From contig CM082578.2 in assembly GCA_040954595.2 (NCBI GenBank), positions 1,966,831 to 2,030,830 on the forward strand: 64,000 nucleotides of DNA. The letters are read 5' to 3'. This DNA is from Balanoglossus misakiensis. Its lineage: Eukaryota > Animalia > Hemichordata. A model generated the notes under the pieces. It saw only the letters and a program-made list of their open reading frames with translations, had not been told where the DNA came from and made no database searches. This document shows positions 35,307 through 62,895 of the stretch, in pieces. Numbering within the stretch: the stretch's first letter is position 1; the number at the start of each line of letters is the position of its first letter. Both the position numbers and the translations under genes were made by a program.

Positions 35307-36338
35307 GTATACATAACTTACTAACATTTCAGAAAAGGATGTTACAGAATTCTTAGAAACACGCACTCCCTTTATTCCTTATGATTTAGAGTCATTAAGT
35401 GAAAGGTGGAAAGATTTTTGAATATGCTTCGTTCATTCTAAGAATGATCTAATTTCAGGGACTTGTGGATGAATTGTAATGTTTATAATCTTTACGGCCC
35501 TGATACGGGTTTTGTGGCCCGAGGTCGTACGGCGGAAGCGCCCGACCGCAGGGAGGGCGGGAATCGACGTACGACCGATGGCCGCAAAACCCGTATCAGG
35601 GCCGTAAAGGTTTTATCATATGCCTTATTGAACGATAATCTACAAGAAACTAATAAAATACACATTCTGTAATATTTTGGAATGTAAATATTATGTGTTT
35701 ATTATGTAAATATTATCTATCGTTTTGGAATGATCTATCCCGTAGCATAGAGGCGCATTCCTCCAGTTCTTGCGGATTGATATGCACGATGTCATTTGTT
35801 TATATTCTATTGCACGTGAGATATAGACGCGCTCGAACTCACAGAGCCGAGCGCGAGCAAAACATTATTTTTTCTTTGCGACGATCGACGCCGACAGTCA
35901 CACATTAATCAAATCAAATCATCAATTTGACTATTCATATTTCCAAATAATGCTCTACAACATGCAGCGATTACGGAAGATGATGGGATTCGGTAGCGGC
36001 ATAGGACATACACACACTGCAAGTGCACTAGTCACTGACACCGCACCAGAAAAATTTAATTCCGAACGTAGCAATGACAACTTTCGAATCTCGCGCAATA
36101 AACACAAAACTAGATCCGGATATTGAACGCGTCTTCCAAATATGGTCACCGGGCCGGGGCGTGATAAGCAAAAAAACTGCAGGGATGTGAGGGCGCTTTT
36201 CCCCATAGACTTTACGTGGGCACGTGAATATAGGCATATGATAATAAACATACAAATGCGGCACGACGACCCCTCACATTTATGAGTCAAAGTATTTGTC
36301 TGCATGCATTCTTATCATTGTGATCCTTGTTCTGACAG

Positions 36339-38857
36339 ACTGTCCCGAAATTGTGATTGGTGAGGGCGTGGTGACCAGTACAGATGATAGAAGCTATGAT
36401 GTCACTGTCTCATTCCAATGCTTGGATGGTTATCAGAAAGTGTCTGGTACTGTCTCTTCTCTCACTTGTCTCTTTGGTGGAAACTGGAATGAAGAGGATC
36501 CTCTCAAGTTACCAGCATGTCAAAGTAAGGCAATAGTGCACTATTCTTCGATATCAAATAACGTCAGACGCAGTTCCGTTGGCATTCAAATTTCCAGATG
36601 ACGGGCAACATCAACAACTTGGTGCAGACAAAGACAGTGCAGATGAAACGCCATGAGGCTGATGAGGCACCATACCTGATACATGTTACGTGTCTGGTAG
36701 TTCTAAAGTAAAAACATACTCGGAAAAACTTTTACTGGATGCCGAAATATTGTTTGCCCGTCATCTGGAAATGACAACACCGTGGGTCACATGGCCAGAT
36801 CACGTGATTGATAGTAAAGAATTGGTAGGACCGAATCCAGTAGAAGGGGTCCAGCTAATTTCTACATAATTTGGTAGCTTTGAGGTCACTCTTTCAGAAG
36901 AAAAAAAAAACATTATTAGAAACCCATTGCCTGTTGATTTCCAGTGCGTAAACAAGCCTACATTTCCTGTTCCACAGTTCAGTCAAGTTTAGGAGAAAAC
37001 TAAAGTCGTCTCAATGTGAACTGTAACTCATGTAGGAATTAATGACTTCTCGTACAGGTGTCATGTTGTTTGTAGCTATAAAATTTCTGTGATGGGAATT
37101 AATGTGAAGATATGATTCAATCTAACTTATATTTTATGAACATTTAAAGGGACAAAGTCTCACTCACTGCCCTTTTCCATGAATTATGTTTGATACAAGA
37201 CACCGTTTATGTTATTCTACATATGGGTATACATGTATAGTGAATCAACGTTCGACCACACACAACTTCCATACTGTTGAGTAATGAGAGTAAAAATCTC
37301 GCCAAAATGAGTAAATGGTAGAGACCGATTATTCATTTTGGCGAGTTTTTCACTCTTGTGTCTATAAATGGGATGGAATTTGTGTGTGGTTGAATGTTGT
37401 TTCACTATACCATGGTGTCTTGTATCAAAGATAATTAATGAAAAAGGGGCAGCGAGATAGACTTAATTTGTCCCTTGAATCTATTGTTAGTAACAACTTG
37501 AATGACACTAATTTGTTGTTTATTTTTTAGGAATAACATGTGGTGGACCCCCTGAGTGCAGCAATGGAATTCTTACCAATGTTACCAGTACAGTGTATGG
37601 TGGAATTGCTTATTATCAATGCATTGAGGGCCATCAGTTTATAAATAATGTGACTTCATTGGAATGCCAAGCAGATGGTGTCTGGGGTCCGCTTGTGCCC
37701 CAATGCGAGCGTAAGTTGATATTTTTGAAAACAATTAAACTGTCATTGTAGTGCACACGTAGGAGACGGATTTTACAGGGTATATTGGCCTACTGTTTGG
37801 AGTAGAACAAAACATTGCATTTGGTACAGAGAACAAAAAATACTCTAAAACAGGTTATTTTCGCAACAGGAAATTTTCGCAATATCGAAAGAGGCAACTG
37901 TTATGCGAGGATTAATTTTCGCGTTTTCATATATCACTAACTGCATTGTTATCTCTGAAAAACATTTTACGCGACTTTTTATTTTCATGTTCTTTGGCTC
38001 TCGCGTATTTCGCTGAAATGTTTTGCTCGCGAAAATAGCCCATTTTGCAGTACTTAAAATAAAGCCAATTACAAGTTACTGTAGCTACATGTAATGTCCC
38101 TTTAAACTTTTTTCCTAGTAGTAACACGCTTGTGATGTTATCTGTTCATCTTACCCAAACAGCTCGTGAGTGTCCACCACCGAATGTAGACAACTACTTA
38201 TCTTATGAAATTGTTAATGGTGATTCATTGGTTTTTGGAACAACCATTGCCTACTCATGTCCATCTGGCTACAGTCTGACTGGCTACACTGTCTCTACAT
38301 GTGGTGAAGATGGATCTTGGATTGGAGATCCAGGATACTGTCAACGTAAGTCATTTAAGGACATGTACGTTCACTAAAATTGAAAGTATGGTCATTTCTT
38401 TTAATTGTTAATTTTTGGATTCGCCTTTGTATGTATAATGAAAATCAGTAATGAAATATACGGGTCACCGTGCTTGTTTTTGAAATACAGAGCCATGAAT
38501 TCAGTCGATAATAGAAGAAAAGGAGTCTATGGTATCTGGACTTTTATAGTGGGAACTTGGGGTGAAAAGGTTAAAGTTGTTTCACAATACAGGTACCTGA
38601 TACATACCGGTATACCACAACCAAGTCTGAATCCACATAATCCATTAAGATGTTTTATTTTTTTTTACTTGCAGGATTAAACTGCAGTGACATACTCATA
38701 ACAGACCAACATTTACAAGCTGTCCCAGATAGTGGACCATATTATATGGGCAGCAACATCACATTCTATTGCGATGCTGGCTGTGAATTAAATGGTGCTG
38801 ATTATCTGACATGTCAATCAGATTTACAGTGGAATGATGCAATACCATCATGCATTG
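36339..38857 (+). CDS. Four Sushi/CCP domains, exons 36339-36524, 37531-37710, 38163-38345, 38675-38857
   Basis: C...F/YxCxxGY...C..xGxW....PxC in each phase-1 exon. Confidence 0.9.
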
Positions 38858-38900
38858 GTAAGTTCACATCATGATTGGTCTTCATGTGGTTGTCTGCTTA

Positions 38901-39215
38901 TTAGGCCAAAAAAAAGGAAATGTTTCTGGTCAGACCCTTCTTTAAAAACTGGTGGGGGGACGCAAATTTAAAAAATAAAAATTTCTCTCAAGGGAAGAAG
39001 GACGGTCAGTTTTATAGTTTTTATCAATATAGTCACATGTACACTGTTCATGCAGTCATTGATTACACGCCCCAAAATGTCCAGTGATTTATATCTAGTT
39101 GAAGCAGTTTGAGTTTGCCGTGGCCGCCACCACAAACCAGGAAAAAAATGGGGGTGACACGCTGTTATTCAAGTGACCCACGCGCTGACCAGAAACATTT
39201 CATTTTTTGGCCTGA
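38901..39215. mobile_element. PIF/Harbinger-like MITE (GGCCAAAA TIR, TNA target); relatives at ~6994-7270, 11608-11954, ~50444-50720
   Basis: tta|ggccaaaaaaaaggaaatgtttctggtcag...ctgaccagaaacatttcattttttggcc|tga. Confidence 0.65.
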
Positions 39216-39673
39216 GTTATTGTAATCACTCCAGTAATTCGACTGCTCCATTAGTTTGACCACCCACTAATCTTTGGATAATTAATTATTCTAAAACCTC
39301 CAATTGTTCGACCAGTGCGTGACTGCATAATTCCCCCACCCCTCACCCCCACCCCCGGAGTTTTAATATCCTCATATAAGTGCCCTTTATCGCTACAGGA
39401 AATTTTTGCGACCGGAAATTTTCGCGATATAAAAAGCAGAAACTGTTACGAGACGATTAAGTTTCATGTTCTCGTATTTCACTGCATTGTCATCACTGAA
39501 AAACATTTTTAAGCGAATTTTTATTTTCACTACGTCTTTTTTGGCTCTCTAGCGTAAAAATTTACTGTTTGCGAAAATTTCCCGTTGGTCTAATACCCAG
39601 CTAAACTTGTTGGTCCGAATTTTCCCCTTGGACCTCTGGGATTTTGATCATATCTTGATGAATAACATTTCAG

Positions 39674-40446
39674 ATATCAATGAATGTAGTACATTGGTGG
39701 CACCATGTGGAATCAATCAAGTCTGTGAAAATAGAGATGGTGACTATCAGTGTGCATGTCTGGTGGGATTTGAACCGGATGTGAATGGAACAGCATGCAA
39801 AGGTGAGACATAACCAGTCACATACAACGTAACTTCAAGTCACTATTCACATTTAACACATTCCAAACTATCTGGATAAATTTTCAGAATTTCCTTGTAA
39901 TTTTAAATTTTCTTCAACAGACATATTAAAGTGTTGCCATCACCTTGACACAACTTTATCATAATTTATCTTTTAAGTTCATTCACAACCTAAAAACAGT
40001 CATTTCCTGGAAATGTTCATCTGTTTTCTCTAAAATATCAGCTGAACTGTTTTGTAGAAGGAAATGTTCAACTAATTATTTCACAGATTTTTTTTCTCCC
40101 AAAAATTGCTGAATTTTTCACTGATTTCCCCCCCCCCCTAAATTCAGCTGAATTTTACACTGATCAGACACTTTTGGAAAGGTGTGGCACAAATTACTGA
40201 ACGTACATCCTTAATGCAATTTTTTAATCCAACCCATGTTCCTTCTTTACTACATTGTAGATATAAATGAATGTGCTTCACATTCTTTTGATCAACTTTG
40301 TGAAAACACTGCAGGTGGTTTTCAATGTTCCTGTGAAGAAGGCTATCTCTTATATGCAAATAACGGCACAGGTGGATTCTATCTACCACCTGGAGAAACT
40401 GGTCTCTCAATGTATGATGTCTACACTTTTAACCAATCATGTGTTC
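39674..40446 (+). CDS. Two Ca-binding EGF domains, exons 39674-39802 and 40261-40446
   Basis: DINEC motifs. The second has the long Uif-like loop and appears to have lost Cys2 (SHSFDQLC). Confidence 0.88.
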
Positions 40447-40471
40447 GTAAGTATCATGTTAAACTATAGAG

Positions 40472-40666
40472 TTAAAGGTATATGATCACCCATGGAAAAT
40501 TAGCTATAATAGTAACCATGGAAAATTGAAATCTAGCCAATCACAGACTTTCAGTGGGAGGTACACGTGAAAAAAGAGTGCCACGATATGTTCTTTAGAA
40601 GGCTCTAATATGCCATTTCAGCCATATATGGGCATATATAAATTGGAGGTGACTGTATACCTTTAA
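40472..40666. mobile_element. MITE family 5 (TTAA|AGGTATA...TATACCT|TTAA); reverse copy at 61798-61988
   Basis: TIRs and TTAA duplications are visible in both copies. Confidence 0.75.
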
Positions 40667-41364
40667 CCAATATTTGTCATATTATTGACCTTTATACCGC
40701 AATGAATTTGCAGCGACAAAAATTGGACAAATGGCTGAATTTCATAATTGGATTTCATAATTTTGCCGTAATTCAGTTATGAAATGTGGAGAAACTCAGC
40801 AGACCAACTTTGCACCGTCATTATTCATTTTGGATTTGTTTCTCTCCTGCTAACAAAAGTGTGCTCTCACCTTATGGCATGAACATGCATTGAATTCTGA
40901 GGAAAAGGGGATTAATACTTGAGTGTATTTACAAAGACAAACAAGCTCACTGGTAGCATTTAAAGGGGAAGTCCGGTTCAGCTACATAGTTGGGTAGCTT
41001 TGAGGTTATTCTTTCAGAAAAAAACATTGTGTAGAAATTATGCATAAATCAGCTGGACTGGACTTCCCTTTTAATATTTCCAAGCAAGGCAATTGGTTTA
41101 CTGCAACAATTATTACTTTGAAAACACAGTGTAAAACAACAATCATGATATGAATGTTACTTTAATAGATAGTCATACTTATATAAGCATGACTGTCTAT
41201 GTTGGTCTGTAAGTTGTATTTGAAAGAAAAGTTTCATGTACGAATAGTACGAAGATTGACATTTAGTGTTCTATGTAATGGCTATAGTTTGTCATTCTAT
41301 AAAAACATATATTAATTTGTGTGTACTTCACCAATATTCTCTTCTTATTCCTAATCTTGTACAG

Positions 41365-43199
41365 CCGTGACGTGTATTGTACCCAACATTTCCAACCCAA
41401 TCCCTATTCCAAATCCACGTGAAGGATCCCTAGTCTGGAACATAGAGGAAACTGGTGATATTCTGGTGGAGTTCAATAGCACCATTACATTCTATTGTTT
41501 GGAGGGTTTTCAACTGAATGGACAGTCCACTCTGTTGTGTACAGTGGAAGGCCAGTATGATGCGAACTTTCCAACTTGCACACGTAAGTCAATATTTTTT
41601 TTTTTAATCAGAAAACCTTGATATTATTATACATCTGGCATCGAGAACAATAGAATTTGGCGTATGGAAGTTGTGTGTGGTTGAACGTTGATTCACTACA
41701 TATCCACATGTAGAATAACACAAACGGTGTCTTGTATTAAATATAATTAATGGAAAAAGGGCAGCGAGAGAGAGACTTTGTCCCTTAAAAAGTGATTACA
41801 GATTTATCCCAGGCTCTTCCTTCAACTCAACTCTACGTGTATTTTCTACAGCTGCTGTCTGCAGTGAACCAGAGAGTATTGATCATGGCAGCTACGAGGT
41901 CAATGACCGCAACTACAACTATCAGAGTGAAGTGACCTATAGTTGTGACATTGGATACAACTTATATGGTAGCCATGTCAGAGTGTGTACCTACAGCAGT
42001 CAAGATGGTGATTACCGATGGAATTCCTCTCCTCCTGTCTGTCAACGTAAGTAACAGGAATGAATAATGCTATACCTTATATTCCTTAGAATTCTTTTGC
42101 ATTCTATAGATTGCAATACGCATTAAAGTTATGTAGCACTCTTTGATCAACAGTTGAAACTACAGCATGAGCTTTCGGGAACATGTAGTCCCCTTCTTCA
42201 GATGCACTCGTGGAAGATTCCAAGCTCGTGCTGTAATTTCAACTGTTGATCAAAGAGTGCTACATAACTTTAATGCATATTGTACCGAAGATCACCACGG
42301 CAAAACTCTGAATTGTCATTCTATAGATTCTATCATTTCTATAGAATTCAATAGAAACAGGCTTCAATACTTCAAAGAAAATATGTGCGCTATATAAGAA
42401 CTCACTATTATTATTTCTAGGTGTTGACTGTGGTTTGTTGACTGCGATTGAAGATGGCTCATGGGAATATAGTGATGGCACTTGGTATGATAGTGTTGCT
42501 ACACTCCAGTGTAACATGGCATATGAAGCACTTGGTAACACCAGGAGATATTGCACTGAAGATGGAACATGGAATGGCACCAGACCAAGATGTGTTGCTC
42601 AGGGTAACGTAGAAAAGAATATTTCTTTCAGAGAAGCAATCACTTCTGTTTGATAATAGTTATACTCTGATGAAATTCATGACATTCACACACAATGTGT
42701 TGTTTGAATACAGTGTAAAATGGGGAATTTTTGGGCCAGAAATTTTCGCAATATCAAAAAAGGCGACTGTTACACTGCGACTACTACTTTTTCACTTTCT
42801 TGTATTTCACTGCATCGTTATTTCCGAAAAACATTTTAAGCAACTTCGAAAAGTACATACAAATATATAGATGTCCATAGAAATTATTTAAACTTATATA
42901 GAAATTCAAAAGGCTAATGAATTCTGTAGAATGATGTATATAGAATGTTTTTGTAAGGAATGACTTCTGTCTGAGTTGATGATTTAATATTGATAAGATA
43001 CTTTGCTTCTTGACCTCAGGAGAATGTCAAGATCCTGGTACACCAGTCAACGGTCAGAGACATGGCAATGATTTCGACATTGGTTCTATAGTGTCATTCA
43101 GTTGTGACTATGGATTCACACCAAGCCATCAAAACCCTTTGATGTGTGAAGGAGATGTTGTGACTGTGTTGCCAACAACACCTTCTACTACAACTACTG
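41365..43199 (+). CDS. Three Sushi domains (41365-41583, 41852-42046, 42421-42603) and N-terminal three-Cys part of a split Sushi (43020-43199)
   Basis: The last exon, GECQDPGTPVNG...FSCDYGF...LMCEG, runs into Thr-rich sequence without the W..C terminus. Confidence 0.85.
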
Positions 43200-43408
43200 G
43201 TGTGTATATACTGTTGTTATAAACATCGTGGTGTGCTGAAACAGTACCGTGATAACTTCTATGTTCATGTAGTGTGATATATGGAGAAATGGTTCAGAAT
43301 GCCCGCTTCCAAAACAACAGAGAGGCTTTAAAAGCTATTTGAATGTTGAAGTGAAACTTGATAAACAGAATTCAATCAGCATAACCTCTATTGCCTCCAT
43401 TGTCATAG

Positions 43409-44468
43409 AAACAGAAACGGTCACAGACATGTCAACTGCAGAGCTTGGGACGACAGAAATGGATGGAACTGATAGAGCGGCAACAGAAGAGGAAGAAGTG
43501 ACCACATTGTGGATGAAAATCTCCACAGCAGCTGCAGACACAGATGTTATGAGAACCACCAAGAGAGCACAGACAGATGGCATGGTAACCACAACGGCAA
43601 AAGTACACACAGATGATGTGGCAACCACGGCGACAAAAGTACACACAGATGATTTGGTAACCACGACGGCAAGAGTACACACTGATGCTCAAACAAGAGA
43701 TGCAACAGGTACGTCAAGTACAAACATCCACTGAATATCTGAAAACAATATGACAAGTTTACTTTACAGATGTCCTCTCAGTGGAAGTGAAAGTATCTCA
43801 TTTCTTTTAATTGTGGATTTTTGGTTTCTCATTTGTTAGCATAATGAAAAGCTGTATAATACAGGGGTCACCATGCTTGAATTTAGTCATGGCCTTGTGT
43901 AGTTGAAAAACAAACAAACAGCTGAGTCAGCATTTCTTCACCCAAAAACATTTAACGATATTTATCTCTGAATAGACTGTGGTGACCATACAATTTTATT
44001 TGACCAATGAATTTATTTTCATTTAACTGAGCTAAATTGTCATGAAAATGACAATAGTAGTGAGTTTATATCAATCTAATCCCATGCGAAGAGACAAATG
44101 TGCACGAATTTGCACAGTTTACAAGTTTACGTTCTGTGTGTACATCAGTAATAGGTTGTGTAGCAAAATGTAGCAATAACATCCAAATTCCATTCCAGTC
44201 AAGTTATTTATCATATAGTTATATTAAATAATTGATATTAAATAATCATTAGTGAGATCTATGGAATCTCACATATTTTAATGCAGAATGACTTGATTTC
44301 CATATGCAGGTTATGAGGCGCCATCAACGCAGGCAATCACTGTGACTGAAAGAAAACCAACGACAGATTCAGATAAAGAATTTACAACATCTGAAACTAC
44401 TAGTGCACCACTTTCAACTAAAATATCAACAACAAAACCAGTGACACCTTCTCATGATGTATCAACAG
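43409..44468 (+). CDS. Mucin-like stalk exons 43409-43708 and 44310-44468
   Basis: Thr-rich, with a 13-aa repeat (V.TTA.KVHTDD). The 3' end PLSTKISTTKPVTPSHDV is shared with exon 698-1309. Confidence 0.78.
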
Positions 44469-45162
44469 GTAATTATACTGTGTATTCGTATAATTCGTAT
44501 TCATATCAGTATTTGTCCTTTTTTGCCACAATTTAAGAAAGGAATATATTTTGTGGCAGAGAAATGGTAAATACTTAATACCGTATACCAGTATATCTAA
44601 TTTTTTACATTGGCAATATGGAGCAAGAAACATAGCATGCGCTAGTCAAGTCTTGCCCCATTGTCACATATATAGTAATATACATTGCAATTACTGAACA
44701 ATATTATGGCTTCTGCTGAATGTGTGTGTGTACCGATAAACTGTGCATATTGACTGGCAGTGAGGGCAACAGCATACATTTGTTTCCCTAAGGGACTGTG
44801 AGTCAACCCAGAACAGTCTGTTTCTAGAGGCTGAAGGCCGATGGAAACAGATTGTTTTGGGGGTAATTTGCATTCCCGAGGGGACACAAACGTATGCTGT
44901 TATCCGAACATGGCTAGTCGATATGTGTTTCATTATCAGAAAGCAGCACAAATCAGGAAATTTCTCTGCTGTACATCATCAATTGGTCTTCATTGTAGAT
45001 GATATATCACCACTGTACAAGGTCCCATACCTGTAAATAAATGATAAAAGCTTACACACAAACACATTTCACCAGATTAGAAAATGTACCACACAAACCC
45101 ATTTTAGGATATTAACTCTTCTTGCAGCAAAGAATATCTTGCTTGTGTTGTTGATTTTACAG

Positions 45163-46689
45163 TCAGTAGAGATTGTGGAACCTTTGAGACTTTTGTAAAC
45201 ACATCTTGTGAGAAGTACATTGAGACACCAACTGATGGTACCTGTTCATTTGGAACATTCTACACAAGTATGGTTGCTGGTATGGCCAATTTTCAAGATT
45301 CACATGTAAGTATAAAGTTAGTTCTTGAAAGTCTATGTACCGGTAAATGTTTTGCTCCAGTGTCAATACTGACCAGATTGTCTCCAATTTCTCATTGTGA
45401 TTTGTAACATTGTTATGAATTATTTTATTTTGTCTTGTTTTGTGTGTTGCACTGTATTTTTTTAAATTTCTCACCCAAGATTGATATAATCACTAAATGT
45501 ACTTGAAAAAAACTGCATACTGTAGTATTTCCAGTGTTGTCTAAAGGAGTTTTTTGGTTTGTGTAATTGCAGGTTTGCGGGCAATGCCTGAATGTGATTG
45601 GTTCAAATGATGCATCTGTAGTTGTCCGGGTAACAGACATGTGCATGTACCTGTACTGCATGAGTGATGAAGATGGTCTGGTTCTAAGTCAGGATGCTTA
45701 CAACATCTTGTCAGATGGTGAAAGTCCTTCATCTCTTCTTGTATCCTACTCAGTTGTTGCCTGTACTGAGGATGTCTCTATCAAGTTCAAGGTTTGTGAA
45801 ACAACACAATTATTAACTAATTTATATACCCTTGTCTTTAATTGTCACATCTTGGCAAACTTGTTTGAAACCTCCCTAGCCATTTTTTTAAGTATTTGTA
45901 AGATTGAAGTTTAAATTGTCAAGAGTATTCATCTGTTTCTTTACTGGAAGTTTAGATCTCCTGGAAATCAAACCAGTCTCAACTGATTTGGACAAGGGAA
46001 GATCCAGTGGGGACTAGGTCATTGACAATGATTTGTTGCAAATACTGTAAAACGGGAAATTTTCACGCCAGGAAATTTTCGCAATATCAAAAGAGGCAAC
46101 TGTTACGTGAGGATTAATTTTGGCGTTCTTGTATTTCACTAACTGCATCGTTAAATCTGAAAAACATTTCACACGACATTTATTTTCACGTCTCTTTTAG
46201 ATCTTGCGTATTTTGCGAAAATTTATGCTCGCGAAAATAACCCATTTTACAGTAAGTCTTGCTCTAAATTTCAAAGTATTAGGACCAACCAGGGACTGTG
46301 TTGTTCATCTTTTTAGTGTACTGCATATTGATTGATTGATTTGTTTATTTAGTTTGCAGAGAGCATTTCTGCATCATTCAGCTTATTAATATTGGATCAT
46401 CGTTACCCTGTCACCACTGTGGAAGTCCACACAACTGGTCCCTGGATTACTCTAGACAGACTCAGTGATAACTTATTTGAACCACCCATTGGTTCTGGTG
46501 ATATACAAGCCCCTCTAAATGTCAAGGTCTATTCGGTGTCTGGTAAAATTAACTACAGGGTTACAGACTTTGAGTTTGATGAGATTATTGACACCTCCAA
46601 GCAATTTCGACATTGTGAGGATGATGAGCTTGAAGTTACTACACTTCCAGACTTTGGAATAGTTACAACAATTGAGAGTACGCTTGAAG
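45163..46689 (+). CDS. Expansin-like (DPBB + CBM63) module of copy B, exons 45163-45305, 45573-45791, 46353-46689
   Basis: Same motifs as 1689-3225 (GTCSFG, CGQCLNV, VRVTDMC, GLVLSQDAY, DHRYPV, KQF). Confidence 0.85.
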
Positions 46690-47236
46690 GTAAGATGGTT
46701 TCATTTTATACAATATGTAATTAGTTTACTGTATAACATAGGTCAATGTTGCTGATGATTTCAATGGAGTGTAGCTGAATTTGTTACATTAGTTGTGATA
46801 TCTGATATTGTGTTTTGCACACCAATATCTGGTACACTCTTATGCAAAATTTTCGCAAGAGGAAATGTTCATGATATCAAATGTGGCAACTGTTACGTGG
46901 CGATTAATTTTCACGTTCTGGTATTTCACTGCATCGTTATCTCTGAAAACCATAAGCGACTTTTTTTTTCACCAGTAAATTTATCGTTCGTGAAAATTTC
47001 CTATTTTACTGTATTTTGAATAAGAAATCTCAACACCCTCATAAACAATTGCATTAAAGAAAGCAATAGAATAATAACACAATATCATTTGAATCACACA
47101 CCGGGATGAGAATACCTTGAAATTGTCTCCTGCCAGGAACATTGATTCAATACTGTTCATGTTAGTGGAGAACAATATAACATTAGATTTCCTTGTTCTA
47201 GATTATTCAAATTGTAATGTTCATTTTTATCAACAG

Positions 47237-50200
47237 ATGAAACAACGCTGGAATATTTAACTAGTCCCTACACCGAAGGCACAGAAAAAAGCATCTCAAC
47301 TGATGGATATGCCATAACTTTGCCCAGAATGACAACTGTGTTGGACACAGACAATATACCGGCTGTGACAACTGGAAAATGCAAGTCAACCACAACAGTT
47401 ACTATGGTTACAGTAACCATGCCTGTTGTCGTGACAACAGTAGAGGCAAGTTCTGAAAAGCCTGATCAGCAGTCAAGCACAGAAGGTGAGGGTACATACA
47501 AGACAACATCTGCTCCGATCTCAAAAACAGAAATGATGTCAACAGCAGAATCTGTGGATATTACTCCTGCAGACCAGACTTCAGAGTATGACGATGCAAG
47601 TGATGTGATGCCAACAGAGTCATGGACCACACCAGAGAAATTGTTGACAACAAACAAAATGGACGCCACCACACCAGAGACACTTTTGACAACAAATAAA
47701 ATGGACGGCACCACAGAATATTGGCAAACGGTAGAAGGCACCACAGAATGGCATACACAAATGATAACTGATGAAACTGCCACTTCCCAAAGAAGAACAA
47801 CAAGAAAACATACAACTGAGGCACCGACAGATCTGTTAACATCAAAAGGTGAATGTATACGAATTTCTACACTTTTCAGCATTATGAGCTCCAAAGTAAG
47901 GATGGATCTTGTTTACTTAGTTGACACGACTCTAGCTCCTGGATGACACCATTATTTTTAGGGGGTGAGGGGTGGAAGAAATGAGAAAACATATTCACTC
48001 CTCACTTTTTTTTCAAAGAAATGTAGGTTTACTTCCTATTATGATAAAGTAAACTATGAATAATAAAACATTGAAAATTTGGCTTTATTGGTAGAAACTT
48101 CATGTACGGGTACAGTGAAAATTTCAATTGAAAAAAAAAAATTCATAATACCTGCAATGTAAACAGTTAAACAGTTATACATTGTTAGTTACCATCATCA
48201 TCGTTGTTTGAATCAGACTCTATGTCACAAATGAGGCAATAACAATGCTCAGTGCAATTGATCTGTATACAGTTGGTCAAATAACTCTTCCACTCTTATC
48301 ATATAGACACCCATGTCCAGTGTGTAATATAAAGTATTCATTCAATTTCATTTATACAGTATATCATGATGTCAGTACTAAACCAACTACGAAACCAGCA
48401 ACAACTCTGAAAGCCACAACAGGTGGTCTTACGACCCTACCAACTCCAACTCAACTACCAGGTAAGAGATATTACCCTTAGTTTGGTTGATAACGTGTTG
48501 TATTTGAGTGATGTCTCAAAGTGTTAAAACAAAACATCCAGAAAACTTGTTTTTGGAAGTTAATTTAAATTGCTTGTCACATGATAGTTGTGTAAACAAT
48601 GGTCACACCAAAATGTTCTCCTATATTTACTTTCAGAAAATATATACTTTTAGGGGATTCTCGATAATTAACAGAACTTGATAATTAACAGAGAAATGTT
48701 TATTTCAAAAAGTTATTTTTTTTTTCTTGTATCTTTCATACACACCATGAAGTAATAATACAGTTAAATTTAAAATCAGAATAAACCACAAAGAGTTGAA
48801 CCCATTTATGCTTTGAACAAATTGACCTGAAGAGAATAGGAGTTGTATGGGTCTGTATTTACAATTAATTGATAATTACTTTGCAGACCGTGACGTTCCT
48901 GACTACTGTGCACAGCTTAGTGTGTCATATAATGGTAGTGGGCAGATTACAGACCAGCAATCCTGTGGCAACTACTATGGTACAGAAATAACAACACAAC
49001 TTGTTAATGGTTTAACTCAACTCCTGTCTCAAGATCCATCAGGAGCATGTGTTCCTCTTGCTGGTCTGGTTACAATCAATATTGCATTATCCACCACCAG
49101 TCTCACCTCGCTATCGGATAATTCGGTGGGTACTCTAACTGTCTCTTTCAGTCTTGCAGAAAATCTTGTAGACTCTTTCTGGAGTCTAGAATATTACACT
49201 CAACAAATTGTTCACTTCATAGCATTTTATCTCACATGCTCTTCAGATTGCATATCCAAAGAAAAAATGCATATTGGGAGAATATTTTCATGCAAATGTG
49301 ACAACCATGCGATGTTTAATTTTGTCGATACAATCGATCGTAAACTGCTCAGCTGAAACAGTGAGCAGTCATCTTTCTTTTTTGTTTACGTGCGTTGGAG
49401 TGGGGATGTCTTGAAACCATCCGCATAACAGTACATACCTGTACACGGTGAGTTGGGGCGCCTTGAAACTTAAGGCGTATTTAACACGCGTTCTGTACGT
49501 ACCGTTCCGTATGGCTTTTTAGTACACGCTAAATTCTATTGTTCTTGGTGCCAGATGCATAATAATAAAGCATATTAAACATAACATCTTTTAAAACAAA
49601 TGCTTATGACTGTATTTTCATTACCTGCAGCTTTTAATGGATGTGGGGCTGAACTTACTGATTGAACCCATAGACCCATTGAGCCCTGGATACGACAATG
49701 CAGAATTGTCGGGATGTGGTCTTCAACTAATCTTTTATCCGACCAACCATCCAAGTGTATTTCCAATTTTGGTTGCCATTGACAGTTCAGACAATTGTCC
49801 AGAACTATCATCTTCTGCAAACCCAATTCAAGAAGATGATGCAACATTCTGTTGTCCTGAAGGATATGAGCTCTTCCAGAATGTCAGATGCAGTATGTAT
49901 AAAATCATTATTTTTATTCACACTAAAGTGGCGCTTATATCTCTTCTTTTCTTTTAAGGATGTACGCGCAGAACATAAACCGGAAAACTGCACGCACCCG
50001 TCTTTTTCCCTTAGGATTACATTGATAATTGCTAGAAAACAAACTTCTTCTATTGTCATTGTCACAAAATTTTCTACATAGCTCAGTCCAGTAAATATAA
50101 ATTCATTGGTCACTTAAAATATAAGGGTCACCTTGCTCTATTTTGAGATAAATTGCATTAAAAAAAAATTTGCCCATAGACAAACCATTGGTGAAAAATG

Positions 50201-52444
50201 CTGAATCAGCAGTTTTCTGCTATTATCGACTAAATTCGTGACTCTGTAATGTGTATTTCATAAACAGGCACGGTCATCAGGTAAATGCATGCTATGAGCG
50301 GTGTGTTACAAGCATGAATTAAGTATTACTAACAGCAGCTGCAGTGGAAGTTGTGAGGAAAATAAGGGATGCATCTGAACAGTCATCATTTCTCACTAAT
50401 GCTAAATGGAATGGCACTGCACCTGTTTGTATTGGTATGTTCATTAGGTCAAAATAAAAAAATATGTGCTGTTCCAATTACCCGACCTACCCTAATTATA
50501 ACCCGCTGACCCTAAACATTTTAGAGCTTCCTAAACCGGAAGTATAAAAAACAATGTCAAATATACAAAATTTATGAAAATTGCAAGAATCACGTAAGAA
50601 TTATGACGTTATTCTTATACACTACGGCGGCCAGAGTAATAAAAAAAATGCAACATAAAAAAAACATTCCCTACCTACCTACCCTATTTTTGAAAACCAT
50701 GTAATCAGAACAGCACAATTTAGCAATTTATCCGCCAGATTGAGTTCTTGAATGAAATCACCAATGTTGGAATTGGATTTTAATGTTTGTTTGTGTTTCA
50801 TTCTAATTTGATTCTGATTGTGTTTCATTCTGATTTGATTTGATTTGATTTCATGCATTGTCTGCCTGCTTTCATTTGTGGAAATCACAAAGCTTATAAA
50901 TGGTCCATCATTGGAGTGGTTGTCAACATCACTGGGAAAAAGGACGATGTTCAACTGGTTTAGCAATTGGGGTTGTCATGGAGCCACCTACAGAACAGTT
51001 CTTCTCCCAGCTGAATTCAAGATTACTATGTCGCTTTAATGGCTGGCAAGTATTGTGGTTACAAACTTGGCAGATTACAGTCTCATATCTTATGAAATAT
51101 TTTTTGGCTTGCAGATACCATGCCACCAACTTTAGACTGTCCAGACACGTACGTAATTCTTGTTGATGAAGTGGAACACAATGTGTCATATCCAGCAGTC
51201 TCTGTTGTAGACAACCACGGAATCAGTGACGTCATATATGAACCACCAAATGGAACTGCAGTTGAAACCAGGAACTACATCACAGTGACTGTTACTGCAA
51301 CCGATTACAGTGGCAACCAGGCTCAGTGTCAATTTGATGTTTCTGTTCAGCTAAACTAGCCCACTAGTCGCTTGGTGAATTTTGAATCTCAATACTTTTG
51401 TGTGTTTGTGGTGATTTTTTGTCTTTATAATACTTTTTGTGTGCATGCTGCTTTGAGCGTTTTTCTGGTACTGAGTTGAGTTTCGAAAATAATGCAAAAA
51501 GTGGTGGCAGAGACTTTAAACATTTAGAAGTTAATATGGCATTGTTTTGAGACATTAGACATTTCACCTTTTAACATCTCATTTTGTTATTCAGCTGATA
51601 CATGTCCAGAGTGGTCACTACCTACACCAGAAGGTGGACAGAAGACTTGCACCTGTGTCATTGGAGGACCACTGGGTTCAGGATTCTCATGTGCATTGTC
51701 CTGTCAAGCTGGTTATGATTTCATTCAAGAAATTGATTCACCTGGAGGAATGTACACCTGCATAATTGGTGGAACATGGCTACCCCATAATTACGTACCT
51801 GATTGTGTTGGTGTGTATGGGCTTCTACTGATCTATTTTTGCGTAATTGAAATTCAACTGATATCATATCAATATTCATTAGGCCCCCAAAATAATATGT
51901 GAATGCTGATGCAGATAATAAACTTGAAGAACCAAAATAACCAACTAATTCAGTGTTACTGTTGGTTCAAATTTTCTCTGTATATAAACTGATCATTTTA
52001 TAATCAGTCAATACCTACATTTTTATAATCAGTCAATACCTACATTTTTATAATCCGTCAATACCTACATTACCGCATGGAAGATGGCACTAGTCCAGAT
52101 TTGAGTGGATTAGCAAAAATGGGATTTTTTCACCAGCTTAGTAAAGCGAAAACTGGATTGACGATTGACAATTCAACTAGTTGGCCTGAAGTTAAATTCT
52201 CTTCCATATTGATCTTTCCACAGAGAAGGAAGTTCCAGATTATTGCCTGACTGTGGGAGGTGTATACAACTCTGTGATAACCATTCCAAGTGATACCAAC
52301 CAATGTATCTCATATTACGAGTCGAGTCTGCTTGGAATTGTGCAGTCTGTTGAACCACTGTTGTCGGTCCTGTGTAACTCGATTGAAGACAGTGTTGAAG
52401 TTCAAAGTGACTATTCAACAATGGCCATAGTAGACTCCAATCAG
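47237..52444 (+). CDS. Copy B mucin (47237-47848, 48360-48461), SEA-like (48887-49125, 49631-49892), Sushi C-strand (50336-50434), HYR (51115-~51350), Sushi (51595-51810), SEA-like first exon (52224-52444)
   Basis: Near-identical to copy A exons 3773-9064. RKRR->RKIR, pyrimidine tract deleted before 50336, HYR donor deleted. Confidence 0.8.
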
Positions 52445-53492
52445 GTATTATTATCTGTCCTGCTGGAAAATTTTACAGTTTTACGCTGAAGAAGAAGGTT
52501 GATGTAATCCTTTATTTGATTTCTGTCGTTACATTATTGTACAATGTGTTACCCTAAGGTTGGGTTCTCCAAGGTGTGTCATTTTTAAGAAGCATTATCT
52601 TGTTATTGGAGGGACAAAGTCTCTCGCTCGCTGCCGTTTTCCCATTAATTATGTTTGGTACAAGACACAGTTTATGTTATTCTACATGTGGATATATAGT
52701 GAATCATCATTTGACCACACACAACTTCCATCTTGTTTGTAGGATATGAGGGTAAAAACTCGCCCAAAATGAATGAATGGTATTCATTTTTCGCGTGTTT
52801 TTTCACTGTCGCGTCTACAAGAGGATGGAAGTTGTGTGTGGTCAAACATTGATTCTCTATATATCCACATGTAGAATAACATAAACAGTGTCTTGTAATT
52901 GTATCAAACATAATCCCTTTAAATACTCCATAATAGCTTTATCTTTTTGCTACTTTTTCAGTGTGTTTGTTTTGTGTATCTACTGCAGTTTCTTGTATAG
53001 GGAATCATCATCTGCCCATGCCTGTATCGCTCACTCTTTTTGTTTCTACCGTACATGTATTTAACACTGAATGTAATGATACTATTCACAACCACCATCA
53101 CCATCATCATCATCATAATCATCATCACCACCACCACCACCACCACCACCATCATCATCATCATCGTCATCATCATCACCATCATCATCATCAGTTTCTG
53201 CTGTTCCAAGAACTAGGCTTATCATGAGTGTAATTGATCATATCAGTTATTATGCCTATGGATACCATCTCATGACTCCTGTCCTATCTTGTAGTGTTTC
53301 TTGACAGTGATCTAGTCTATTCACATGTATCAGAAAACAAGCACTTAACAATATCTGGATTTCTCATGAATATGTGACAGATATTAACATCTAGAAGTGC
53401 ATTTACCTAAATGTACCAGTGTATGCATAGGGGGTGTGGACCAGTTGTTTAATTTACAAACATTTGTTATTCTTTCACTTTTTTTTCTTCAG

Positions 53493-56400
53493 ATAATCAC
53501 GCTCCTGAAGTCATTTACTGTCCCAATACGACCCGTATAATTAGTCCTAATAGCTTGACAACAGGAGTATGGCAGGAGCCTATATTTACAGATGATGTCG
53601 CCATTGCCAATGTGACACAAACCTACACAATGGGTAAGTTTCCTATAAAATATCATTTCTGATTATAGATAATATATAACATTCACACTAACTAAGTTTT
53701 TTTTATCGGGGTGGGGTGGGGAGTTGATCTAAACAGAAACCAACAAGCTGAGACAACTTTCCTAAGATTATGGTCAGTATGAAGCATACTGGTACAGTTT
53801 ATTCTTGTGGCCGTTACTCATATATGGCTAGCACATCCTATGTGCGACAGATGATCTTGCTTCCAAGTATTAAAGCCTCAATTGCTGATACTATTACCAT
53901 ATGTTTATAGGCCCTTTCCTCGATCCCAGGGCAGTACAATGAAGTTAAAACTCGAAAGCATTTGTGTTTGCACGTAATTGTTTATTGGAAACAAAAGATT
54001 TGACCAACTGTTGAGCAAGGCCTTTAATCAGTAAAGTACTTAATATTCTCAACTACTACTGGGGATACCCATACCACAAATGTTGTGTTCTCTTACAATG
54101 GGCAGTTGAATAAACGTGTGCGGCACCATATCTGTTTAGTATACATATCTTGTTCATGTTTATATGTACAGTCACAATCAGGAGTTGATAATATGCCTGT
54201 GTATACCCACCAGATAGCTCACTTAAATGGACCATTCTAAGTTTGAAAAGAAAATCATGAAAAACATTCAAGAAACGGAAGCTATTTTGGCTTTAGCACC
54301 CATGCCTGTAATGATGTGCATAATTTTTTTCTTACAGGTGACACCTTTTCCTGGGGAACCTACCAGATCAGCTATGTTGCTTCAGATACAGCTGGCAACA
54401 ATGCACAGTGCAACTTTTTACTCTATGTACTGCGTGAGTGAATTTTTTTATCATTCATACATAAACTTTACAAATTAATTAATATCTTGACAAATTGTCA
54501 TCTCTACCCCTTGTTATGTCTTGTCACATACTGTAAAACAGGACATTTTCGTGACAGAAAATATTTTGCAATATATCAAAAGAGGCAACTGTGACACGAG
54601 AATTAAATTTCCGCATTCTAGTATTTTACTAACTACTCTGGTATCTCTGAAAAACATTTTATGCGACTTTATTTTCTTCTTCTTTTTTGCCGAAGTTTGG
54701 GAAAATTTGCCGTTTTACAGTAATATGATTGCATCATTATCACTTTTGTCCCTATGTAACTATCAAAAATTATAACAACATCATTCAGAACATACAAGGA
54801 CACTCAAACCCGTCTAAAACAAACCCTGTCTAATCGGGAAACCTCTCTTCAACCAACAGCTTTTCCTAGTCCCTTTTACATAGAAACATGTTAATGTGTT
54901 GGTGTTCTGTTTACAAGATTTGACTGTGTAATAAATATGGGTGTCACACATACACCATTAAGACAGTTCTGAAGCATCTCAGAATTGATACTGTCTTAAA
55001 AAAACATGTGTGGACGGTGTAAGTGGTCCTGAAACGTCTCAGATTTGAGACGGCTCTGCCAGCCAGACCTGAGCCGGTGTAAGGATTAACACCTCTCCGC
55101 AACCCATTGTCTATGGGGCCGAGCCTCAGCGCCCATACATAAACTTTGATTGGATGACATTTTGCATTCCTTAGTTGACACACACAAAATGTTATCCAAT
55201 GACGTGAAGTGTATTACACGGCAGAGACTACAATGTGCCAGAAGACAGTTCCAGAGTCATTTATTCAATGTTTTTTAACGAATTTGGCTAATTTGTGGCC
55301 GTGTGAAAAATATAATCTCACACACCAAAGACCTGGGATCATATTTCTCACGCTCATCAGGGATATTTTGTCCCACACTCGCCTGCGGCTTGAGTGGGAC
55401 AATAAATCCCCAACTCATGTGTGAAATATGATCCCAGGTCCTTGGGGAATGGGAGATTCTAGTAATCCCACACTCTGGCAGATTTGAAAGCATTATATGT
55501 GCAATACATGGACAGAAACTTCAATGTGCCAGCAATCTAATTAGTATCAGATGTAGAGTTAGGCGCTTTTGATAGGTTTGGCTATTCTGTTCTCTTAGCT
55601 TTGGCTGTTCTGTTCTCTGTCTTGGCTGTTCTGTTCTCTGTCTTGGCTGTTCTCGGGTGCACGCATCTCTTTCAAACAGAACAGCCAAGAATCAGCGAAA
55701 GTAAAGAAGGCGCCTAATTCTACATCTGATTTTAATCAGATTGATGTGCCAAGTGACAGTTACACGAGAAGTAGAATCTCAAACACCGAGGAACCTGAAA
55801 TAAGATTTCTGACACTCAAACTAAAATATTGCATCTCACACTCACCTTTGCCCATGAGAAGAAATCTAACACCATATCCTTTGGGATGTATTAGATTCGG
55901 TTAATCTCCTACATGGGACGCAAGACCTGTAATTCATTTTCCATAGCCAACAATGGGAGCTTTGAGCTAAATATTCCTATTTTATAACATTCAGCGAGCC
56001 AAATTCCATTGCATGGTTTTATCTTTGATGTTATATTCTGCCATTATATTTTCCAAGAAATAAAAATGAGGAACAGTGGGCTGTCAGCAGATTACCAATT
56101 GATGTTGGCAACGAAACTGGGGAACCCATCATTGAAGAGAGACAAATTCGAATCATGACAAATCCAGCAAAACCTTTTGACTCAGGTGAAGTATTTGAGC
56201 CCCAGTAACTCTAACATTTGACTGTTTTTTCAGTATTTTTCTCCTGTGTCATTTTCTTCTTTTACTCTTTATAGCTTTTCAACAAAGTCTGTATATAAGC
56301 AACGGCCATTGTTATTGTAGAAAATGAATTCGAGTCTCGACTTCATTCAATTTTCATCAATAACAATGCAGATTACTACAAAAGGGCTGTTTTGAAATAA

Positions 56401-57169
56401 TATCCTAGTCCCTTTTACATAGAAACATGTTAATGTGTTGGTGTTCTGTTTAAAAGATTTGACTGTGTAATAAATATGGGTGTCACACATACACCATTAA
56501 GACAGTTCTGAAGCATCTCAGAATTGATACTGTCTTAAAAAAAACATGTGTGGACGGTGTAAGTGGTCCTGAAACGTCTCAGATTTGAGACGGCTCTGCC
56601 AGCCAGACCTGAGCCTGTGTAAGGATTAACACCTCTCCGCAACCCATTGTCTATGGGGCCGAGCCTCAGCGCCCATACATAAACTTTGTGTGTGTGGACA
56701 CAACATGACTCAAAGGATTAATGCTCTGTGGTTAGCACTGGCAAATAGTGTCTCAAATTTTACCCTGTGTGAACCTGGTAAAAGAGGCATTGTGCCCTAG
56801 TGGCTAGGGTTGTGGGTTCGTTACCTAGACCTGGACATTTGGGTAGTATTTGCCTCTTGGATGATATATGAGACACAGACATTTGGGTAGTATTTGCCTG
56901 TTGGATGATAGATGAAATAAAATTAAAAATATATAGACAAATAAACTGTGTTCTCCTTTCTTTTACAGCATTTGATTGTGAAAAGCCAGCACCACCAGTT
57001 AAAGGTATTTCCATCTGTAATGAGTTTGAGTCGGGTGTGTTCTGTCAGATGGATTGTTTACCAGGATACAAGTTTGCAAGCCTGCCAGCACCTTACTATC
57101 TCTGCCATAGTGAAGGATCTTTTAATCCTGAGAATCCAGACGAGGAATTCACCTTCCCTGGATGTTCAG
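53493..57169 (+). CDS. HYR domain (53493-53633, 54338-54433) and Sushi-like domain (56969-57169)
   Basis: Intact HYR frame; PFDCEKPAPPVKG...CLPGYKF...YLC...FPGC. Confidence 0.85.
56404..56687. repeat. Local direct duplication of ~54865-55147
   Basis: cctagtcccttttacatagaaacatg...gcccatacataaactttg occurs twice in the copy B intron. Confidence 0.9.
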
Positions 57170-57209
57170 GTGAGAAAAAATGATTTGGTATCAGTAAAGA
57201 AATACTGTA

Positions 57210-58264
57210 TACCGTTTTATTTTTGCGAGCGATTTATTTTTGCGACATTCGCGTGTACAACAAAACGCGAACTTTTTCCTTCGCAAACATATATACATTT
57301 CAGCTTACACACTGTACTTCTCACCTGACCTATACACACACACACGCACACAACAACAAGACGATACACCCGGTTCTTAATCAATACTATGTACATTTAT
57401 TTTTAATTCAATGTTGGAAAAAATATAAAAGGAACAAAAATAAATAAAGAGAAAATGATCATCTCATAAAGTGTGCTCCACATGAAACACGTAGCCTACG
57501 ATTGCACAACTTTCACAACCGGCCGGGGCCAGGAGGGTTAACCGTACGACTCGGGCGGAAAATGGCGTTCACTTGGCTGGTTCAAGAAAGCAAGTGGCAG
57601 ACAAAATAACAGTATTACCAAAAGTAAAATCATCAAAACAGTACAAACGAAAAAAATATTATGATATATTTACAATGATTACAAAATTAAAAATATTCAC
57701 GGGGCCTTGATCGATACAAAATGGCGGCTATTCCTTACGAAAATTTACAAAGGCCAGAAGGTCAAAGTCCACCTCCCCCTCTCAAAGTTCTCGTAGTTAA
57801 ATCTGTATTCCGCTAATAGCAGAAATTATAGATGACTTTTCAAAGCCTTCAATGATGGCACCACGATCATTTCATAGTTTATCAAATGCTGATAAAAGCC
57901 AGTTCGAATGAAGCGGTTTCAGTGTCGACAAACGGAGATCCACTGCTACTGCACTTACATCAACGCCGTTGTCAAGGGCCTCTGCTACTTTGCGCGCATA
58001 CCAGTTGTGGAATTCGTGTCCCAATGCTTCCTTGAACTTTGCGTTGAAGGACAGGTCCAGAGGCTGCAATTCTGAAGTACAGTTCGCAGGGACAAACACA
58101 GCATTGATTCCCGAGTCACGGAGTTTCGCGAGACGTAGACGCTTAGCCTTATCACCGTTTTAACGCAATCTGATCGATTTCCTGTAAACGCAAACTTAAA
58201 ACGCCGTAGAGTGCTACCTTGTTGCAAAATCGCAAAAATTTGTGATCGCAAAAATAAAACGGTA
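57210..58264 (-). mobile_element. Internally deleted pogo/Tigger-type (DDE_1) DNA transposon
   Basis: TA + CCGTTTTATTTTTGCGA ... TCGCAAAAATAAAACGG + TA. Minus-strand relic VFVPANCTSELQPLDLSFNAKFK...PLHSNWLLSAF (57872-58102) has the QPLD motif and an in-frame stop. Confidence 0.85.
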
Positions 58265-58638
58265 TACAGTATAATCAGGTTGCACATGCACATTCAGAAA
58301 ATTCTCCAAAGAGAGAGAGTTGTGAGAGGGGGTATTCCAGCATTGAGACAATTTTCTTTTAGTTATAAATGAAAAGAGAAATATGAGTAATGCAAATTCT
58401 TGCTTTACAGTATGTCAAGGTTGTGATTACAGGTAGATAATTTGTTAACATCATATCTGCTTACCCCAATATAAAGCTCCAGTACATTTGAGCTATTTTC
58501 TTAATATTTTGTTCTGGGTAAGCAGCTGTAACTTTCCTGATTGGCTAAGCGGTTTCGCAGTCTAAGTCAATACATCGTTCGCTAGATTGAAAATTGCATC
58601 TTTAACAAAATTTGTTTGTTTGTATTGTTCTACTGCAG

Positions 58639-59608
58639 CTCCTGGGAAGACTCAACGTGGAGTGAATTGTGGCGTGTCATACAATTCACAGGCTGGTACA
58701 TGTAACAATGGTGTCATCCAGCAATTGAGGATCAGTTTTATGAACACTATCAACTATCTGAATGATTTGTTTGGTATTTGTGGCGGTGAATGCAACTTTG
58801 TTGACCTTGAAATAACCTGCGGCGCCTCAAACCGAAGAAAGAGACAGGCTGATACTCAGCTTGTGGTTCAGTTCAGTTTCACAACCAATGCGTGAGTAGT
58901 AATTGTTATTTTTCGAGTATTTTATTCCCCTTCTGTTCTATTGAAATGACTTTGGTGACATGTCTAGGGTACTGATCCCAGGCTGTGTGAGGACCAGCTC
59001 TGTATTCCCTATACAGCTGGTGTTTGCATTATTGCAAAATATTCCATTCATGCAAGTGAAAACAAATTATTTTGTGTCTTAACACTCAAACATTTTCAGT
59101 TTTTGGCAACCCCATCATTTCTGCCCACCTTCCTTCATGTTGCGGCATCCTGTATTCTAAAGATTCATGCATTCGAAATATACTGCAAAACATGTTATTT
59201 TCGCGAGCAGTAAATTTCTGCAAAACATGCGCTGGTCAAAAAAACGTTAAAATAAAAAGTTGTGTAAAATGTTTTTGGAGATAATGATGCAGTTAGTGAA
59301 ATACGAGAACTCGAAAATTCGTCCTCACGTAACAGTCGCCTCTTTTAATATCGCGAAAATTTCCTGTCGTGAAAACAACCCAGTTTACAGTACACACTTC
59401 TGGTTGGTATTGTAATGTGGCATATGTAAGAATTTTTTGCCTGTTGTTTTATCCATTAGCTCTGCTGATGCTGCAGCTGTAGTTATTGAAGATGCAGTCA
59501 AGAATGGTACTTTTGATACAGCTGAATATTCAGTCGACGCTGAGACATTACAAGTTGAAAGTACAATATTCTGTTCCAATGGTAGTGTTCTTGTTGGAGA
59601 AGAATGTG
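58639..59608 (+). CDS. Membrane-proximal SEA-like module with furin site RRKR, exons 58639-58891 and 59460-59608
   Basis: ...ITCGASNRRKRQADTQLVVQFSF... then ...FCSNGSVLVGEEC. Phases 1-2-1. Confidence 0.78.
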
Positions 59609-62628: not shown

Positions 62629-62895
62629 GTGTGTATACATTTCTTTGTCTTTTAATAACTCAAGATTAAAAAACAATATTCACTAAAGTTTACACATTTG
62701 TTTGATCTACATGATTACAGTTTACGTTGTCTTGAAAATATTTGTGAAAATGGTGAAACTGCAACATCTGCAGTATAACTAGATTTTTGGTCAACTAACC
62801 ATTTTACAATAGTTAAGCATCATAATGAATGGTTTTCTTGCTTTTATCATAGCATATCGCCCCCGTGACAAATAGAAATATTTAAACTCTTACAG

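Follow-up and report, generated by a model that had tools for sequence, protein, structure and literature searches.

Sushi (CCP) domains are usually encoded by single compact exons, and their four cysteines pair as Cys1-Cys3 and Cys2-Cys4. In SEA-domain mucins and in the Notch heterodimerisation domain, a cut ectodomain is held by a domain with strands from both subunits. For the fly protein Uif, the domain list, the apical location and a "presumed cleavage site" were found in the accessible text of PMC3340373 and PMC12867482, and the former describes two FA58C domains for insect-type Uif. Here we analysed a Uif-family gene of the acorn worm Balanoglossus misakiensis, which occurs in two copies within 64,000 nucleotides of contig CM082578.2 (positions 1,966,831 to 2,030,830 of the forward strand; the window). 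In copy 2, one Sushi domain was split between two exons standing 7.1 kb apart, and a long arm was inserted between its third cysteine and its conserved Trp. The split Sushi with varied filling is real and conserved. The exons of this slot are the following:

43020-43199, + strand: N-terminal half of the Sushi domain (Cys1-Cys3) and start of the Thr-rich arm, phase 1-1 (Pfam, profile)
43409-43708, + strand: mucin-like exon, 31% Ser+Thr, phase 1-1
44310-44468, + strand: mucin-like exon, 42% Ser+Thr, phase 1-1
45163-46689, + strand: expansin-like unit of exons 45163-45305, 45573-45791 and 46353-46689, phase 1-1 as a set
47237-48461, + strand: two mucin-like exons, 47237-47848 and 48360-48461, each phase 1-1
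48887-49892, + strand: two-exon "SEA-like" module, 48887-49125 and 49631-49892, phase 1-1 as a set, a paralogue of the gene's own module
50336-50434, + strand: polybasic site (RKIR; RKRR in copy 1) and C-terminal Sushi strand W..P.C (profile)

The eleven exons from 43020 to 50434, with ends read from the window DNA, had AG/GT borders and compatible phases and gave 883 codons without a stop, in which 833 residues lay between Cys3 and Trp. Exon 43020-43199 covered positions 1-46 of the 56 of the Pfam Sushi model (E 1.1e-5), and exon 50336-50434, encoding TNAKWNGTAPVC, could be aligned to the termini of six other Sushi exons of this gene, all intact. The tail was scored with a profile of 204 intact Sushi domains, all from non-Uif proteins, in which Cys3 and Trp are 5-8 residues apart. 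The N-terminal half alone reached 32.0 bits, and together with the tail from 50336 it reached 44.4 bits over all 58 profile positions, a score attained by none of the 3537 decoy tails taken from the DNA between the two halves (top decoy, 43.6). An earlier note on this DNA, made from the letters alone, had placed Cys1-3 in the first exon and the missing terminus in the last, about 830 codons on, and these results bear it out. The tail added 8-12 bits in the window and in 6/6 arm- or loop-bearing homologues tested. The hallmarks of the domain, four cysteines and conserved Gly and Trp, were present in the split domain of the window, and the cysteines were invariant in 12 aligned rows. No further W-x(3,6)-P-x-C was present in any + frame of 43200-50335, and an alternative C-terminal exon, or a second N-terminal half at 49893-50335, was sought and not found.

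Pfam scans of 49 window stretches gave the Uif domain order. The series LDLa, CUB x3, Sushi, EGF, HYR, TKE, EGF array, LamG, HYR, TKE and transmembrane segment, obtained with Pfam and collinear tblastn of orthologues, was complete only from both copies jointly. No C-type lectin exon was found in the window, upstream of which copy 1 begins, and a lectin-like N-terminus was visible in acorn-worm orthologues. The closest proteins found were XP_070567428.1 of Ptychodera flava and XP_077862127.1 (LOC100378937) of Saccoglossus kowalevskii, both annotated as "uncharacterized". They were collinear with the window exon by exon in tblastn, with most globular-domain exons ~45-80% identical, and the Ptychodera orthologue was 69% identical to the window protein over 1058 tree columns. 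Both shared the arm, the same split with a WNGTAP.C strand, and a furin-type polybasic site 17 residues before the Trp. Two word-based protein searches with single exons gave no matches, which is weak evidence.

Both Saccoglossus halves were predicted to close into one CCP fold. In the AlphaFold2 model of a natural stretch of this orthologue with a 122-residue gap, the predicted local distance difference test (pLDDT) was 93-98 in the N-terminal half, 79-96 around the C-terminal strand and mostly below 50 in the linker; the HYR domain was of high confidence, and strands were placed at 41-49 and 159-165. In the VIA comparison with 48161 chains, model residues 1-175 aligned to single CCP domains over 62-63 residues, with root-mean-square deviation (rmsd) of 1.2-1.6 Å and Z up to 9.7. 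Examples are CD55 (8b8r; Z 9.7, rmsd 1.4) and CD46 (8qk3; Z 9.1, rmsd 1.2), each with 62 residues aligned. Since only ~50 confident residues precede the linker, both halves must contribute to this modelled fold, and the model thus agrees with the earlier proposal that the halves make one CCP domain. Among the matches listed by Foldseek for the same model, Ig-like and HYR domains dominated.

The loop was then compared across animals. Twenty candidates were chosen by architecture from 81 + 112 search matches, and 13 rows spanned both Sushi halves; Solemya (C-truncated), Thelazia (slot not parsed) and Asterias P0110 (SVEP1-like) were left out of the slot count, and four N-truncated models were tallied separately. 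An intact loop, with 11 residues from Cys3 to Trp, was found in Owenia, Batillaria and Sinanodonta (3/13 spanning rows), and the outgroup SVEP1 also had an intact Sushi before HYR. The loop of a Glandiceps paralogue was only 36 residues long and carried furin-type sites. The Cys3-Trp distance was 887 residues in Patella, 1162 in Gigantopelta, 1586 and 2134 in two Mytilus, 1507 in Ptychodera and, for the Saccoglossus gene, 1820 in one model and 122 in another; in the older Saccoglossus model the mucin exon was joined directly to the RKRR exon, as phase symmetry permits. The filling of the slot thus varied between phyla, in support of the earlier note on this point. The natural series of intact loop, short furin loop, FA58C, mucin with SEA-like modules, and mucin with expansin-like units is material for studies of domain insertion and strand re-association.

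Two insect rows had 163 residues at the Cys3-Trp equivalent, and Pfam placed F5/8C (FA58C) at 68-192 of the stretch, flanked by Cys3 at 44 and the final Cys at 214, before HYR, which is where the earlier note had put it in Drosophila Uif. One eight-cysteine layout was common to 18/19 insect rows, the remaining row being a fragment. Insect Uif (e.g. XP_077268738.1) is like the acorn-worm protein in its domain order (CTLD in the orthologues, LDLa, CUB x3, Sushi, EGF, HYR, TKE repeats, EGF array, LamG and transmembrane segment) and in the insertion between Cys3 and Cys4 of the pre-HYR Sushi. It differs in several respects. The acorn-worm protein has no FA58C anywhere, none being called by Pfam in the window exons scanned or in the orthologues; one HYR follows the slot, whereas two follow it in insects; mucin, expansin-like and SEA-like modules make up an insert of 833-1820 residues, against 163 in insects; and the slot has a polybasic site and the canonical Trp. 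The first FA58C of insect Uif (P0089, P0091, ~820-970) lies between two EGF domains, and none was found at that place in the window or in the non-insect relatives scanned, so both FA58C domains look like arthropod-side additions.

Mollusc Uif-like proteins (Patella, Gigantopelta, Mytilus, Nucella and scallops) share with the acorn-worm protein the split Sushi, where the model spans it, as well as mucin, SEA-like copies, and a polybasic site 15-30 residues before the Trp. They differ in having several SEA-like copies, which score more weakly (E 3e-6 and 4e-5), and no expansin-like unit; no recognised lectin domain was found in their arms. Between the Mytilus congeners (P0092 and P0093) the arm cassettes differ in order and length, and a Cys-rich module closes one of the two arms ahead of the furin sites; this suggests alternative splicing or fast turnover.

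In a tree built on 1059 columns downstream of the slot, the insects grouped with the intact-loop spiralian rows (93/96; Shimodaira-Hasegawa-like approximate likelihood ratio test 98 when three rows were omitted and a mixture model was used). A clade of insects with the arm-bearing rows, which is the grouping of the earlier note and was tested after the tree had been seen, was weakly rejected (approximately unbiased test, p 0.037). Because the insects grouped with intact-loop rows, the loop fillings look independent rather than one domain exchanged for another. Independent insertions are thus supported, not proven, given the long branches; the FA58C of insects probably entered this tolerant loop in an insertion of its own, and, on the same grouping, the acorn-worm gene may be a branch paralogous to insect Uif.

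Expansin-like units were found only in acorn worms among the candidates, with two in Ptychodera, three in Saccoglossus, at least two in copy 1 and a single hybrid unit in copy 2. Exon 46353 matched EXLX1 of B. subtilis (E 0.0048) and Expansin_C clusters (0.89-0.90), and exon 45573 gave DPBB_1 with E 0.0019, under the cut-off. A Ptychodera unit matched both domains of the solved EXLX1 (E 6.5e-11), four further expansin chains were also matched, and a further Pfam scan gave DPBB_1 with E 3e-7. Taken together, these matches show a DPBB domain followed by a CBM63-like domain in the expansin-like units. The mucin and expansin modules that the earlier note had read in the intervening exons are confirmed. 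Its "SEA-like" module is a different case: Pfam called no SEA domain in these exons or in the homologues scanned, and exons 48887-49125 and 49631-49892 proved to be paralogous to the module that the gene itself carries after the post-HYR Sushi (E 3e-5 and 3e-8).

The units resemble microbial expansins (EXLX; B. subtilis EXLX1/YoaJ, PDB 7wvr and 4jcw) in the order of DPBB and beta-sandwich domains and in the CG.C motif, and C(G/R)QC, the Asp71 equivalent and HRYP were kept in 7/7 units. They differ from them at the known binding face. Asp82 of EXLX1 is linked to loosening and W125, W126 and Y157 to cellulose binding in the accessible part of PMC5072189, which also mentions a natural expansin with Leu at the Asp82 position. 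The Asp82 equivalent was absent from all seven units (Val in six, Ala in one), and none had an aromatic residue at any position of the triad, which makes ordinary glycan binding doubtful. To judge from these residues, the units have kept the fold and lost the known binding face. The few known animal expansin genes are called unconfirmed, and possibly contamination, in the part of 10.1101/637728 that was accessible, and the present gene bears on that open question. Here the unit is interrupted by two introns, lies in frame within an animal transmembrane protein and is conserved in three acorn worms, so contamination is hard to invoke. A literature search of partial coverage, with few subscription papers, found no acorn-worm expansin and no nested Sushi in Uif; the supplementary table of 10.1101/637728 could list these genes.

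Furin cuts at R-x-K/R-R in an exposed loop. Such a motif stood 10-30 residues before the Trp in 8/8 of the spanning rows that have an arm or a long loop, in none of the three intact rows and in neither of the two insect rows; it also preceded the Trp in three of the four N-truncated models. In copy 1 and the orthologues the site was RKRR, within the low-pLDDT linker of the Saccoglossus model. On balance, and with some reserve, we favour the reading that the split Sushi refolds as one CCP domain and likely clasps, by a disulfide, a protein that furin has cut next to the C-terminal strand, the arm being a spacer and copy 2 non-functional.

The proposed steps are as follows. The intron within the Cys3-Trp loop is in phase 1, and every module of the arm, whether one exon or a set of exons, is of phase 1-1. 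By the exon-shuffling rules in the accessible text of PMC3927616, phase 1-1 exons insert into pre-existing phase-1 introns; on these rules the loop intron would accept, duplicate and lose cassettes, which would explain why inserts in relatives range from 36 to 2134 residues. As modelled for Saccoglossus, the C-terminal strand would then return to complete the CCP fold, and Cys2-Cys4 would bridge the halves. Furin would open the loop at R-x-K/R-R, leaving the glycosylated arm on the N-terminal subunit with a loose end, and the clasp would hold that subunit on the membrane-anchored one. The arm would serve mainly as a spacer for glycocalyx or mucus contact, and the degenerate expansin-like units would bind, if at all, non-canonically. 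Compared with SEA mucins and Notch, the holding domain would be a disulfide-bearing Sushi, and the cut would lie where a very long inserted loop ends. A second furin-type site, RRKR, was observed in the second SEA-like module (58623-58889) and also in Saccoglossus, and the protein may thus be cut twice.

Several points weigh against this reading of the slot. The margin over the decoys was less than 1 bit, which is thin, and the exon chain is a prediction from splice signals and phases. Contigs of two low-depth runs (one sample, kind unrecorded) had no splice joints at the exon ends and did not reach the lesions at 50330 and 51343, so that they speak neither for nor against these; in one contig codon 40288 was for Cys and the expansin exons had the letters of copy 1. 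The AlphaFold2 model is of an orthologue whose gap is 122 residues long, against the 833-residue arm of copy 2. Its alignment held intact Sushi relatives, and AlphaFold2 favours known CCP folds, so that a pass was made easier. The furin cut and the Cys2-Cys4 link are motif- and model-based predictions; an N-truncated crinoid model lacked a polybasic site up to 600 residues from the Trp, and RVRR occurred inside the slot in 1/18 insect rows. The arm-bearing rows were unsupported as one clade (62/34; unresolved under the mixture model), and the long branches may draw the insects towards the intact rows. Finally, the insects have replaced the Trp (YDYG.SPC), and their tail added no Sushi score (21.7 against 22.3 bits).

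The insect tail also speaks for a different account, in which the halves do not reassemble, the N-terminal half is a three-cysteine remnant, the arm runs in line with the chain and furin sheds the N-terminal part. In the insect model, which was of low confidence (mean pLDDT 58.5), the discoidin fold was recovered at 46-200, and pLDDT was below 50 at 198-212, within the tail; moreover, with 800-2100 residues in the loop, most of them glycosylated, its closure would be kinetically demanding. Against it stand the invariant cysteines, the gain of score from the tail in the window and all six homologues, and the Saccoglossus model, in which the fold closes, and we regard this account as improbable. 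The other account is that of the earlier note, a swappable ligand-binding slot in which FA58C was exchanged for expansin. It has in its favour that FA58C and the expansin-like fold occupy an equivalent position, with Cys3 ahead of them and the pre-HYR Cys behind, that the accessible text of PMC3340373 gives FA58C as a putative domain for carbohydrate binding, and that the motifs kept in all seven units place them under constraint. As stated, however, it is not supported by the survey: the loop is intact in 3/13 rows, the mollusc arms have no recognised lectin fold, the insects group with intact rows, and Asp82 and the triad are kept in 0/7 units. An insertion-tolerant loop that carries a cleavage clasp is the stronger reading, and we think a dedicated slot of this kind unlikely.

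One Sushi domain here tolerates inserts of 36 to >2000 residues and has apparently been filled more than once in animal evolution, and Uif-family proteins gain a testable processing model where the accessible text of PMC12867482 offers only a "presumed cleavage site". A bolder version is conceivable, and we put it forward tentatively: acorn worms may have domesticated an expansin fold of plant or microbial type, probably gained horizontally, and may present several copies of it in tandem, their binding face rewired, on a mucin tether that furin has opened. A split-Sushi clasp would anchor this tether, an undescribed route to two-chain apical receptors, and the loop would have been filled independently in insects, molluscs and ambulacrarians.

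The remaining parts of the two copies are the following:

1-23458, + strand: copy 1 of the gene, beginning upstream of the window and ending at 23458 (self-comparison, tblastn)
1-179, ~698-1309 and 1689-3225, + strand: in copy 1, end of an earlier expansin unit, mucin exon and expansin unit
~6885-6983, + strand: in copy 1, intact RKRR/W..P.C exon, followed by HYR, Sushi, SEA-like, TKE, EGF array, LamG and HYR x2
28810-42603, + strand: 5' part of copy 2, with LDLa, CUB x3, Sushi x4, EGF x2 (Cys to Phe at 40288) and Sushi x3 (Pfam, tblastn)
51115-51356, + strand: HYR exon of copy 2, whose reading runs into a stop after donor loss (Pfam, copy comparison)
51597-56409, + strand: remainder of copy 2, with Sushi, first SEA-like exon, a 10.6-kb deletion at ~52995 and HYR x2 (self-comparison, tblastn)
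56953-63606, + strand: 3' exons, present singly, with Sushi, second SEA-like module with RRKR, TKE x4, EGF x2, transmembrane segment and cytoplasmic tail (Pfam, tblastn)

Positions 45149-52996 of copy 2 matched 1675-9616 of copy 1 at 96.9%, and 52995-56409 matched 20204-23458. Copy 2 carried several lesions. The acceptor of its W..P.C exon had lost 26 nt of pyrimidine tract relative to copy 1, the polybasic site was changed from RKRR to RKIR, the HYR donor was removed by a 13-nt deletion, the deleted 10.6 kb held the TKE repeats, EGF array and LamG exons, and one EGF cysteine was changed to Phe. No signal-peptide or C-type lectin exon was found ahead of it in the window. The copy at 43-50 kb is thus probably a non-functional, decayed tandem duplicate, with the intact alleles of the slot in copy 1. 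Neither the second copy, nor the decay, nor the furin-type site figures in the earlier note. Divergence between the copies fell from 15-24% to ~1% near 45800 and was 0-1.3% per 300-bp bin over 45900-52800, and copy 1 had, upstream, one expansin exon and one mucin exon more than copy 2; from these two features, the single unit of copy 2 is likely a hybrid of two tandem units formed by unequal crossing-over, with the crossover near 45770-45900.

The decay of copy 2 has points against it as well. Of 11 amino-acid differences in eight exons, compared with Ptychodera, five sided with copy 1, three with copy 2 and three with neither, and copy 1, which ends at 23458, also bears a deletion of 1 nt at 21572 (HYR3). 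The tandem arrangement could instead be an assembly mis-join of two haplotypes, since the divergence per bin is in the range of acorn-worm heterozygosity (0.5% and 1.3% in the accessible text of PMC4729200) and the 3' exons are present once. The several independent disabling changes, the missing signal and lectin exons and a CRAL-TRIO fragment at the junction fit a decaying duplicate better than an allele, and a mis-join appears rather doubtful to us, though not far-fetched. The split-Sushi result is unaffected by the copy question, as the orthologues confirm the split.

The CRAL-TRIO domain lies between the copies in three exons without a 5' part (24590-27210, + strand; Pfam CRAL_TRIO_2 E 4.9e-18), and the fragment resembles the 3' end of GDAP2. 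A direct repeat of 286 bp, ~99% identical, at 54864-55148 and 56403-56688, flanks 1.25 kb and also occurs at 22024-22308. Copy 1 ends at 23458, where the second 286-bp repeat would begin, and a small element of long-terminal-repeat type possibly marks the breakpoint.

The EGF domain at 40260-40445 has a long insertion between its last cysteines, which is also present in insect, mollusc, annelid and acorn-worm relatives and is a second nested insertion in the family. A family of palindromic intronic repeats resembling miniature inverted-repeat transposable elements (MITEs) and a second repeat family were found in the window:

Family 1, MITE-like, intronic: 9230-9534, 31400-31660, 32055-32370, 34182-34530, 37140-37480, 41664-41790, 52610-52914, 59936-60100 and 62260-62416
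Family 2: 2576-2790, 15511-15727, 17551-17750, 37838-38052, 46040-46254 and 59181-59392

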